The notes below the pieces were generated by a model, which saw nothing but the letters and a program-made list of their open reading frames with translations, was not told where the DNA came from and did not search any database. Below are positions 24,319 through 25,559 of a stretch of 64,000 nucleotides of DNA, in pieces (within the stretch, counting starts at the first letter, position 1; the number at the start of each line of letters is the position of its first letter). This stretch comes from Shigella phage vb_GEC_SH_GT, in sequence record OR887633. The stretch is one strand, 5' to 3'. Both the position numbers and the translations under genes were made by a program.

Positions 24319-24792
24319 TTATTTGAATGATTTGACGTACTGAATAGAACCTTTACTATTCACGAAAGCGATTTTACCATTTTTATTATACATGGTAGCA
24401 GTACGCTGATAGCCATAAGTTTGTTTACCAGATTGATAACCAACTAATGCGAAATTATCTTCACCCATTTTATTCTGTTTAGAGCGAATACGTTCATGAC
24501 CGTGTGCCATAAGAACCTTAGCATCACCAGTTGAAATTGATCTACGAGTTTTTTCATCTTCAACTGTATTAACAAAGTCGTCAAATGAATCAAATTTAGC
24601 ATGGGATTTATTATACAGTTTTCCATCTACTGCATAATTATATCCCTGTACATCCATCTCAACTTCTGTACCATCATCCAATACAGCAGTAATTTTTTGA
24701 CCTTTTTTAAATTTCAAAAGATCAGTAAAAGATTCAGCAATAATTTGAGAATTAATAGCTGCTTCAGTGATAAATTCTTGATATGTTTTCAT
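24319..24792 (-). CDS. Internal-protein-like head protein with capsid-targeting leader
   Basis: Starts MKTYQEFITEA, the T4 internal-protein leader cleaved by gp21; 157 aa. Confidence 0.7.
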   Translation of the reverse strand: MKTYQEFITEAAINSQIIAESFTDLLKFKKGQKITAVLDDGTEVEMDVQGYNYAVDGKLYNKSHAKFDSFDDFVNTVEDEKTRRSISTGDAKVLMAHGHERIRSKQNKMGEDNFALVGYQSGKQTYGYQRTATMYNKNGKIAFVNSKGSIQYVKSFK

Positions 24793-24801
24793 ATGTTTCC
24801 T

Positions 24802-25218
24802 TTAAATGTAAATATTTTTGCCGTAATACTTGTACCAGTGTGGCTTCATTAAAATTTTTTCATCGAGTCGTTGTTGACTCAATTTAATAGCTGATTTGCA
24901 TGGATTATAATCATTTTTCCATTCTGCTGGAATATCGCTGATGTCAGGAACTTCAGTATCTTTTATACTAAACCCACGTTTTAAGCATTCCGTTATAATG
25001 TCTGATTGACGCTTTCGCAAAAATTCTAACTTATCGTAAAAGAACGTAACATGACCAGAGCCTAAAATAAACTCGGAAGATATTTTAAAATCTTTAACCC
25101 GCTTACCATTTGCCACATGTTTACGAACTATACCAAAAACACGCGGCAATTCACGATACTCAGCCATAAGATGTTGGTCGGTCAGTTCAGAAACAAGTGT
25201 TAAATTGATACGAGTCAT
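24802..25218 (-). CDS. denV: Endonuclease V (pyrimidine-dimer DNA glycosylase)
   Basis: [29 protein letters not shown]... matches recalled T4 DenV (138 aa). Confidence 0.88.
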
Positions 25219-25244
25219 AATTTCCTCCAAGTAGTTGATGAATG

Positions 25245-25276
25245 TATAGTATCAAAACCCTTGGAGGAAGTAAACA
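25245..25276 (-). promoter_or_regulatory. T4-type early promoter for denV
   Basis: tgtatagtatc ... agtaaaca module. Confidence 0.5.
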
Positions 25277-25277
25277 A

Positions 25278-25559
25278 CTATTTTTCTGAAGCGCCTGAAA
25301 TATATTTTTCAAGACGTTGTTTCATCAGCGAGCCGTTCTTAGCGATTTCTTCCGGTTTATCGCACATACGCAACAAGGCTTCAAGCTTAACGATATCACT
25401 GGTGCGCTCAAATTTGCGAGTATCTATCTTACTAGCAAGTTCAGAAATACGTGCTAATAGACTTTCGGCTTCAACCAAAGCTGCACCTAGCTTAGTTGCA
25501 AATGTGTCAGTAGCTTCGTTAAGAATAGATTCTGATAAAAATTCACTATATGTTTTCAT
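25278..25559 (-). CDS. Internal-protein-like head protein with capsid-targeting leader
   Basis: Start at [11 protein letters not shown]; ATG overlaps the e stop (ATGA). Confidence 0.65.

Follow-up and report, generated by a model that had tools for sequence, protein, structure and literature searches.

Which proteins flank the endonuclease V gene denV of Shigella phage vb_GEC_SH_GT (sequence record OR887633), and what might they do for the phage? In the window, the whole stretch of 64,000 nucleotides that was analysed, denV lies next to two small open reading frames (ORFs) that the original prediction, made from the sequence without database searches, had taken for genes of internal proteins (IPs) with a capsid-targeting leader, arranged in an order that T4 does not have. 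Both ORFs are present where it placed them, on the minus strand, which it had left unstated. Along that strand e is followed directly by a 93-aa ORF, whose start codon overlaps the e stop codon (ATGA, 25556-25559), and then come denV, a 157-aa ORF and vs.8:

25556-26044, minus strand: e, T4-type lysozyme, 162 aa
25278-25559, minus strand: predicted Ip5-family internal protein precursor, 93 aa (stop codon 25278-25280; phrog_3499)
24802-25218, minus strand: denV, endonuclease V, pyrimidine-dimer glycosylase (Pfam Pyr_excise, phrog_1183)
24319-24792, minus strand: ip4, predicted Ip4 precursor, 157 aa (stop codon 24319-24321; Pfam PF24183 DUF7412, phrog_3155)
23626-24213, minus strand: vs.8-like gene, left edge of the variable locus (phrog_1488)

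The ORF map and the comparison with T4 show that denV has one IP gene on each side. This is unlike T4, where the order is vs.8, denV, ipII (100 aa), ipIII (193 aa) and e, as the original prediction had it for denV to e, with both IP genes between e and denV and of other lengths. The two genes described here lie within the e-vs.8 interval, one of two polymorphic IP loci (the other being 57B-trna).

The product of the larger ORF begins MKTYQEFITEAAINS and matches Pfam DUF7412 (PF24183) with an E value of 1.8e-95 (317.8 bits against a cutoff of 27; residues 1-157, in a model of 158 positions) as well as phrog_3155, annotated as internal virion protein (E 2e-101). It is 98.7% identical to the T2 ip4 product (GenBank AYD82724) and 97% identical to K3 Ip4 (UniProt Q38388), and equals these proteins in length, leader and position beside vs.8; its sequence identifies it as the protein named Ip4 in phages K3 and T2. 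The surroundings differ, since in T2 ip4 directly follows e with no denV, whereas here denV and a second IP gene intervene, and at this locus a 753-bp block made up of denV and the 93-aa gene distinguishes the window from T2.

As the original prediction had suspected from its length, the 157-aa protein corresponds to neither IPII nor IPIII. In permissive BLASTP comparisons of Ip4 and the 93-aa protein with these two, most of the identity falls within the first 10-16 residues and nothing convincing appears in the mature region. Only one alignment extends further, that of Ip4 residues 1-91 with IPII (27.6% identity; E 1.5e-6 when just the two sequences are compared and composition is left uncorrected); its anchor is the leader common to both, which in Ip4 is 9/10 identical to those of both T4 proteins. 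Full-length identity to the two T4 proteins in the same gene order is clearly not what this locus holds. What the new proteins have in common with IPII and IPIII is the locus, the ten-residue capsid-targeting sequence (9/10 and 6-7/10 identical), the [L/I]-x-E motif, for ip4 also the 5' flanking DNA, and, presumably, the way in which they are packaged and injected.

Mechanical extension would carry the smaller ORF to 25574, where a TTG stands. Deposited annotations (Kelasse, JK45) begin the gene with the ATG at 25557-25559, at which the 93-aa database homologues and the leader start as well. The resulting protein has a full-length match to phrog_3499, internal head protein (E 1.2e-46), and aligns with T2 Ip5 at 48% identity over 84 residues (E 5e-23). 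Because this identity is only 48%, we class it as an Ip5-family paralogue rather than an orthologue. It shares with Ip5 of T2, PP01 and AR1 (84 aa; ipI/57B locus) the family, the type of leader and a predicted helical body, but it is 9 residues longer, its gene lies between e and denV, in the other of the two IP loci, and its translation is probably coupled to that of e. At an identity of at least 95% it occurs in 232 phage records. Its predicted structure is helical with a pTM of 0.35, too low for a meaningful fold search. The dN/dS ratio against homologues is 0.16 for this gene and 0.03-0.15 for ip4, and these values together with the full-length profile matches establish both small ORFs as real genes rather than chance ORFs.

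Both proteins carry a leader of the T4 type, MKTYxEF[I/L]xE, as had been proposed, with Y4, F7, I/L8 and E10 in each. Y4 and F7 were shown experimentally to act in targeting and I/L8 and E10 in processing (PMC9026906). Candidate sites for the prohead protease gp21, of the form [L/I]-x-E, lie at the end of the leader in both proteins:

24763-24792, minus strand: Ip4 capsid-targeting sequence, residues 1-10 (MKTYQEFITE), ending at the predicted gp21 site I-T-E10/A
24733-24762, minus strand: Ip4 variable linker, residues 11-20 (AAINSQIIAE), ending at a second predicted gp21 site, I-A-E20/S
25515-25559, minus strand: leader of the 93-aa protein, residues 1-15, with predicted gp21 sites L-S-E10/S and L-N-E15/A

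These sites are invariant across homologues except for E10 in one variant of the 93-aa protein (P0018), where it is replaced by V. In 13 members of the Ip4 family, with identities down to 61%, M1, K2, F7, E10 and E20 never change and position 18 holds I, L or M, whereas residues 11-19 vary. Mature Ip4 is predicted to start at S21 and would have 137 aa, a mass of 15.5 kDa and a pI of 9.3. In the 93-aa family L13, N14, E15 and A16 are invariant in all five members; since E10 is lost in P0018 and L-N-E15 is kept, E15 is the conserved site of this family, and cleavage is predicted after E10 and after E15. The mature protein would be near neutral (predicted pI 6.3-8.1), unlike the basic T4 IPs. T4 IPI, whose gene is also present in the window (99%-identical ipI, 32803-33093), has its only site at I-T-E20. 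IPI and Ip4 are both small and leader-bearing, and injected IPI loses about 20 N-terminal residues at I-T-E, as is predicted for Ip4. The mature sequences of Ip4 and of IPI*, the inhibitor of GmrSD from E. coli CT596, are unrelated and have no detectable fold similarity. Among 63 leader ORFs found beside denV in related phages, M1, K2, Y4, E6 and F7 are invariant, M1 and F7 having been required by the search pattern itself; at positions 8 and 10, which the pattern left free, all but one have I or L and 61 have E, respectively.

A leader could also persist as a relic of recombination on one or both ORFs, the products being unpackaged accessory proteins of the cytoplasm or the genes being in decay. 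The 93-aa gene lacks the upstream segment conserved at IP genes and is joined to e by the ATGA overlap, its E10 is lost in one variant and its structure model is poor, all of which would suit such a relic. Against this stand the purifying selection on both genes, the intact targeting residues of the leader in every homologue and the retention of L-N-E15 where E10 is gone; in T4, moreover, fusion to the capsid-targeting sequence suffices for packaging even of foreign proteins (PMC9026906). We therefore regard a relic as highly improbable, and genuine packaging of both as internal proteins as very probable.

How did the order come to differ from that of T4? Homology to T4 ends at 24307 (95.6% identity across the vs.8 side) and restarts at 25561. 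The C-terminus of e reads WKAYI before the stop codon as compared with WDAYKNL in T4, which places a cassette junction within the last codons of e. The denV gene is a non-T4 allele, with 78% amino acid and 75% nucleotide identity to T4 denV, and its flanks are 92-96% identical. Three elements were located around these genes:

24793-24819, minus strand: conserved 5' segment of the IP cassette with the ip4 ribosome-binding site, overlapping the last denV codons (KNIYI and stop)
25222-25269, minus strand: stem-loop upstream of denV, a perfect inverted repeat with 10-bp arms (25222-25231 and 25260-25269)
26058-26078, minus strand: two TATAAATA late-promoter motifs upstream of e, with an inverted repeat around them, the only such motifs near the locus

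Upstream of ip4, 27 nt agree fully with the DNA that precedes T4 ipII, and a shorter core, TTTAAAGGAAACA, is common to the upstream regions of T4 ipIII and T2 ip4. The sequence upstream of the 93-aa gene is the 3' end of e. The stem-loop encloses a promoter-like site, GTTTAC-N17-TACTAT, and would pair with the denV Shine-Dalgarno sequence; its RNA fold is stable (-21.8 kcal/mol, z -3.5), and the hairpin recurs in T4 with its stem built of another sequence. The motifs upstream of e are the probable source of late transcripts over e, the 93-aa gene, denV and ip4, and they would serve the IP genes in this way. In a motif scan neither IP gene had a late promoter immediately in front of it, and a scan for an intrinsic terminator after ip4 returned none; a hairpin at about 24265-24285 has no T-run and folds like shuffled sequence (z -0.3). 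Precise exchange of gene bodies across short conserved flanks, and a stem-loop enclosing an early-promoter-like site, here upstream of denV, are likewise features of the hyperplastic regions and mobile promoter-stem-loop cassettes of T4-type genomes (Repoila et al. 1994; Arbiol et al. 2010, PMC2839356), from which nothing here differs in kind. The window is one more allele combination of this known pattern, and the difference in order from T4 would have arisen by cassette-like recombination at the short conserved sequences flanking IP genes.

We propose that both IP genes are transcribed late, probably from the promoters upstream of e, the 93-aa gene being coupled to e in translation through ATGA and ip4 using its own ribosome-binding site, 9 nt after denV. 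The capsid-targeting sequence of ten residues would attach each precursor to the prohead's scaffolding core, as shown for T4 IPIII, the key residues being conserved here. The protease gp21 would then cut after the Glu of [L/I]-x-E and take the leader off, with a second cut most likely after the invariant residues E20 of Ip4 and E15 of the 93-aa protein, to give a basic protein of about 15.5 kDa and a helical one of about 8.6 kDa. To judge from the family, the mature proteins would be kept in the DNA-filled head and injected together with the DNA. In the new cell they would act stoichiometrically, before phage gene expression, against a strain-specific host defence, the most likely target being a nuclease active on glucosyl-hmC DNA, for instance a type IV restriction enzyme of the GmrSD type. 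The analogy is with T4, whose Ip1, Ip2 and Ip3 each inhibit one GmrSD variant with no cross-protection (PMC12373910; PMC3012670), IPII acting on GmrSD of ECOR21 and IPIII on that of ECOR17, and the known GmrSD inhibitors share no sequence (PMC12373910). We lean toward the chain as a whole, from packaging through the anti-defence step, with moderate confidence, and by this analogy an anti-defence role of both proteins is likewise somewhat probable; that a GmrSD-type enzyme in particular would be the target is doubtful, if a real possibility.

The differing layouts of T4-like phages bear out the reading of this locus as a variable one for injected proteins, and it varied in all the comparisons. 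Over its full 1.9 kb the segment has 99.3% identity to Escherichia phage Kelasse, in which both products are annotated as internal head proteins, and the same arrangement, deposited and annotated, is fully covered in about 20 Tequatrovirus records, a count that includes RefSeq/GenBank duplicates of the same phage. The layouts comprise e-ipIII-ipII-denV (T4), e-ip4 (T2, Mineola), e-denV-ip4 (BP32), e-denV-Ip10-Ip4 (JLBYU22), e-ip93-denV-ipX (JK45) and e-ipY-denV-ip4-ipZ (CGG4-1). In 29 IMG/VR loci 13 families account for the 63 leader ORFs beside denV, with IPIII-like and Ip7-like genes on either side, and across T4-like phages the two positions around denV are occupied by at least 13 unrelated leader-bearing families. 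The IP repertoire of this phage (IPI, a 74-aa IP, Ip4 and the Ip5-like protein) compares with IPI, IPII and IPIII in T4 and Ip4, Ip5 and Ip7 in T2. The polymorphism of IP loci has been attributed to Repoila et al. 1994 in PMC12373910, and the locus is a known polymorphic internal-protein locus, on record since 1994 as a hotspot of gene swapping. The original prediction is supported in every element of its interpretation. What it observed is correct, if ordinary: the genes and their names, like the variability of the locus, are already established, and near-identical genomes are public. We conclude that both are ordinary members of the T-even internal-protein system, located in the hyperplastic e-denV-vs.8 region of a kha5h-type Tequatrovirus.

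The same variability bears on whether packaged IPs might instead have a structural or physical role (charge neutralisation, an aid to packaging or ejection, or core assembly) rather than the inhibition of a defence. Lysine-rich proteins within condensed DNA would suit that role, which was once proposed for IPIII. IP genes are, however, non-essential and freely gained and lost (T4 lacks Ip4, and T2 lacks IPII and IPIII), the position between e and denV or that downstream of denV is empty in some phages, and a generic physical role would not call for so many unrelated families, at least 13. The 93-aa protein is not basic, and all three T4 IPs that were tested are specific defence inhibitors (PMC12373910). 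A structural or physical role is on these grounds unlikely.

The conservation of Ip4 bears on what it would inhibit. It is the most widely conserved IP seen in this analysis and occurs in several Tevenvirinae genera, in phages of Escherichia, Shigella, Klebsiella, Salmonella, Serratia, Yersinia and Citrobacter, with 95-99% identity within Tequatrovirus, about 70% across genera and 68 invariant columns, among them the polar residues H64, H99, R101, E111, D112, N113, Q120 and Q129. More distant relatives with an MNFxxFLNES leader exist. Searched exhaustively with a profile, 1.84 billion representative proteins yielded no more than seven clusters, six of them resembling relatives of phage IPs or pieces of these, with P0025, the seventh, being a protein of 1879 aa with short repeated stretches matched at E 3.6e-5; the search identified no bacterial homologue hinting at a function. 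The predicted fold of Ip4 gave no informative match among solved or predicted structures and no similarity in the PDB, IPI* included, and sequence searches found no relative of solved structure for either protein. PADLOC and NCBIfam models gave no significant matches, and Ip4 matches no enzyme family. In the searchable literature on Ip4, ipIV and DUF7412 in a phage context we found no report of its function and no proteomic report on Ip4.

Ip4 is conserved unusually well for an arms-race protein (dN/dS at most 0.15), and this counts against an anti-defence chain; a strain-specific inhibitor would account for it no better than a conserved target or a role as an enzyme or structural component. 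Also counted against the chain are the near-neutral mature 93-aa protein and the lack of a late-promoter motif directly upstream of either gene.

Injected effectors could act on something other than a type IV enzyme, such as an abortive-infection or toxin-antitoxin system, a nuclease such as RecBCD, a signalling system or a host process that is seized upon injection, and Ip4 could even be an enzyme itself. Its invariant polar residues would fit an active site or a fixed interface, its breadth over seven host genera together with the distant relatives suggests a widely conserved target, and T4 also injects Alt, an ADP-ribosyltransferase (PMC9026906). That Ip4 has no match to an enzyme family, to PADLOC or NCBIfam models or by fold argues the other way, as does the fact that GmrSD enzymes are the sole experimentally established targets of IPs (PMC12373910), and we consider a target outside type IV restriction rather unlikely. 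We tentatively suggest that Ip4 is an injected inhibitor or modifier of a host factor, either a further variant of the GmrSD or BrxU type or another defence common to Escherichia, Klebsiella, Salmonella and Serratia, and that the Ip5-like protein may act in the same way against a cognate system of its own; we give this a little less than balanced weight.

For the annotation of the genome the findings have little consequence. Since T4 Ip1-3 each disarm one GmrSD variant, the repertoire of internal proteins probably affects host range and helps to set which wild E. coli are open to infection by a therapeutic T-even phage. Where new anti-defence specificities are sought, Ip4 and the Ip5 family stand out as candidates, and the targets of Ip4 and of the Ip5-like protein, if our reading is true, would extend the rule of one IP for one defence variant drawn from T4 Ip1-3 in 2025.

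The original prediction placed two genes with the capsid-targeting leader of T-even internal proteins (IPs) on either side of denV, in an order unlike that of T4. Its ORF coordinates and N-terminal sequences proved exact on re-reading, and the T4 order that it gave is correct, since NC_000866 reads vs.8, denV, ipII, ipIII, e. The order does differ from T4, with one leader ORF on each side of denV in the window. All genes of this region lie on the minus strand.

Genes of the e-denV-vs.8 locus, in transcription order
26082-26537, minus strand, nudE
25556-26044, minus strand, e, T4-type lysozyme
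25278-25559, minus strand, 93-aa ORF (ip93)
24802-25218, minus strand, denV
24319-24792, minus strand, 157-aa ORF (ip4)
23626-24213, minus strand, vs.8-like gene

The e stop codon overlaps the ATG of the 93-aa ORF as ATGA (25556-25559), and 9 nt separate the denV stop codon from the ip4 start. At 195 aa, the product of the vs.8-like gene is shorter than T4 vs.8 (219 aa), whose N-terminus (MRDSRQPVIRSSPSAVMGKYRNGQFM...) is kept as a separate 33-aa ORF in another frame (24176-24277, minus strand), indicating a frameshift near codon 33; T2 vs.8 is likewise in two fragments, and decay of the gene in this lineage is possible.

Pfam DUF7412 covers the 157-aa protein from end to end (E 1.8e-95), and phrog_3155 'internal virion protein' also matches it (E 2e-101); the protein is 98.7% identical to the product of the T2 gene annotated ip4 and 97% to UniProt Q38388 'Ip4 [Enterobacteria phage K3]'. 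No Pfam hit was obtained for the 93-aa protein; its matches are phrog_3499 'internal head protein' (E 1.2e-46) and T2 Ip5 (48% identity, E 5e-23), and 232 phage records carry it at at least 95% identity. The T2 Ip5 gene sits in the other IP locus, adjoining 57B, whereas the 93-aa gene is in the e-denV locus. Both genes are under purifying selection (dN/dS 0.03-0.15 in ip4, 0.16 in the 93-aa gene). Alignment to T4 IPII and IPIII gave no full-length identity, the identity of both proteins being concentrated in residues 1-10 to 1-16. The one longer alignment, Ip4 residues 1-91 with IPII (27.6% identity), is anchored on the common leader, and its E of 1.5e-6 comes from a two-sequence search with composition correction off.

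In IPIII the first 10 residues are enough for packaging, residues 4 and 7 being important for targeting and residues 8 and 10 for cleavage by the prohead protease gp21, which cuts after Glu in L/I-x-E (PMC9026906). The predicted leader is indeed complete in both window proteins (Y4, F7, I/L8, E10), and both carry sites at which gp21 would cut. All of 13 Ip4 homologues, which share 61% to 98% identity with the window protein, keep E10 and E20 and have I, L or M at position 18, and residues 11-19 form the most variable stretch of the protein, a pattern that argues for a second cleavage after E20. The predicted mature Ip4 would start at S21 (137 aa, 15.5 kDa, pI 9.3). The 93-aa family has an invariant L-N-E15 followed by A and has lost E10 in one variant, so its mature product probably begins at A16 (78 aa, 8.6 kDa). 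The T4 IPI counterpart in the window is without E10 and has I-T-E20 followed by A in its place, a precedent for the longer propeptides predicted here. It belongs to the other IP locus (32494-33093).

Genes of the other IP locus
32803-33093, minus strand, ipI, 99% identity to T4 IPI, propeptide longer by one Thr
32494-32718, minus strand, 74-aa leader-bearing ORF following ipI, phrog_8765 'internal virion protein'

Together with ip4 and the 93-aa gene this makes four IP genes in the phage, a set that differs from those of T4 and T2.

Across its whole length the 1.9-kb segment 24200-26100 shares 99.3% identity with Escherichia phage vB_EcoM_Kelasse (species Tequatrovirus kha5h). Roughly 20 other listed records, some of them duplicate RefSeq/GenBank entries for the same phage, match it at 97-99%, among them Kha5h, slur03/07/08/14 and ime09. 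'Ip4/ipIV' and 'internal head protein' are already annotated in several near-identical records, and the region holds no new sequence.

Gene orders of the locus in other phages, in transcription order
T4: e-ipIII-ipII-denV-vs.8
T2 and Klebsiella phage Mineola: e-ip4-vs.8
BP32: e-denV-ip4
JLBYU22: e-denV-Ip10-Ip4
JK45: e-ip93-denV-(86-aa IP)
Salmonella phage CGG4-1: e-(86-aa IP)-denV-Ip4-(87-aa IP)

With the denV protein as query we recovered 80 loci from IMG/VR, 29 of which have leader-bearing ORFs beside denV; with the leader masked, their 63 leader ORFs fell into 13 sequence families. Together with the listed architectures, this survey indicates that an order unlike T4 is the normal state of the locus. 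The e-denV-vs.8 locus is a two-position hotspot, and the proposal of a variable injected-protein locus is borne out by the six gene orders tabulated and the 13 families. In the IMG/VR loci, genes resembling IPIII or Ip7 can stand on either side of denV; in T2, the Ip7-like kind is found in the ipI locus. These placements show that IP genes are exchanged between and within IP loci. The IPIII-like gene lies downstream of denV in the IMG/VR T4-like contigs L013, L014, L019, L028 and L034-L036 and upstream of it in T4 and in contigs L011, L016, L018 and L043.

Homology to T4 (95.6%) extends from the left to 24307, the counterpart of the T4 denV stop codon, and is back at 25561 (92%), within the last e codons. 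Between these points only denV and its upstream region align to T4, at 75%, so the window denV is a second allele (78% protein identity to T4; found at at least 95% in 273 phage records). T2, whose locus is without denV, is collinear through ip4 and has 83 bp between ip4 and e in place of the 753-bp block of denV and the 93-aa gene. Immediately before the ip4 ATG, a stretch of 27 nt (24793-24819, minus strand) recurs unchanged upstream of T4 ipII, and a shorter core with the ribosome-binding site is common to the upstreams of T4 ipIII and T2 ip4. Counting the 30 leader-coding nt, genes that are otherwise unrelated share about 60 nt at their 5' ends, which fits the cassette-exchange idea for IP genes reportedly owed to Repoila et al. 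1994. The same 27 nt encode the denV C-terminus in the window (KNIYI before the stop, against KAIYA in T4); in T4 the identical DNA is intergenic, upstream of ipII. Either the T4 ipII upstream is a relic of the 3' end of a denV of the window type, or the end of the window denV was overwritten by an IP cassette flank. At the e-proximal position the recombination junction lies inside the last e codons and creates the ATGA overlap; e ends in ...TGTWKAYI (25556-25570, minus strand; 162 aa) versus ...TGTWDAYKNL in T4 (164 aa), and JK45 e likewise has 162 aa.

Near the locus, the late-promoter motif TATAAATA occurs only upstream of e, where two copies (26058-26065 and 26071-26078, minus strand) are situated in an inverted repeat (26045-26055 / 26064-26074; region 26045-26078, minus strand) that seems akin to the described T4 e hairpin, by which the ribosome-binding site of early transcripts is masked. 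Another inverted repeat, a perfect one of 10 bp (25222-25231 / 25260-25269, minus strand), lies upstream of denV; it surrounds an early-promoter-like GTTTAC-N17-TACTAT and base-pairs with the denV Shine-Dalgarno sequence (RNA fold -21.8 kcal/mol, z -3.5). The T4 locus (L002, about 4360-4415) has the same hairpin with another stem (UUCCUCCAAG/CUUGGAGGAA against UCUCCUGUAG/CUACAGGAGA), in effect a compensatory change, which indicates that the structure is conserved. Late transcripts initiated at the e promoters would include both the 93-aa gene, which is coupled to e, and ip4, which has a ribosome-binding site to itself, and denV translation would be masked on them. A scan found no canonical terminator 3' of ip4.

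The AlphaFold2 model of Ip4 (13-sequence alignment, pLDDT 71, pTM 0.66) predicts a long N-terminal helix over the propeptide, a beta-hairpin/barrel region, three short helices and a C-terminal beta-sheet. Foldseek against the PDB returned nothing at E < 0.4, and the sole BFVD return was K3 Ip4. An exhaustive Ip4 profile search of 1.84 billion representative proteins gave 7 clusters; three distant relatives have 157-186 aa and a leader of the MNFxxFLNES type or similar, and one hit (E 3.6e-5) is 1879 aa long with short repeated stretches. PADLOC and NCBIfam gave no match. The 93-aa protein is predicted all-helical at low global confidence (pTM 0.35). With no informative fold match for Ip4 and a low-confidence 93-aa model, structure gives no functional lead, and the Ip4 fold is apparently an orphan restricted to phages.

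Packaging, processing and the injection route are well established for the IP family. Judged from their sequences, both window proteins have all its features, and they are very probably bona fide packaged internal proteins. The best-supported hypothesis is that after injection Ip4 and the Ip5-like protein would inhibit host defence at DNA entry; we lean slightly towards an anti-defence role for both, and the whole chain from packaging through that step seems a little better than an even bet. For IPI* the inhibited enzyme is the GmrSD of E. coli CT596 (PMC3012670), and in 2025 inhibition was shown for Ip2 against the GmrSD of ECOR21 and for Ip3 against that of ECOR17, without cross-protection (PMC12373910); a passage of the latter credits Repoila et al. 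1994 with 'at least 10' Ips. A GmrSD-type target is nevertheless rather doubtful here. Ip4 is far more conserved and widespread than expected of a strain-specific arms-race factor and has many invariant polar residues, which counts against simple extrapolation from GmrSD; Ip4 may have a conserved target other than GmrSD, or a role associated with DNA. Taken together, our results uphold the original observation and support its interpretation. The feature is one already known, named and annotated, and the locus is a classic hyperplastic one, of which many allele combinations, this arrangement among them, are public.
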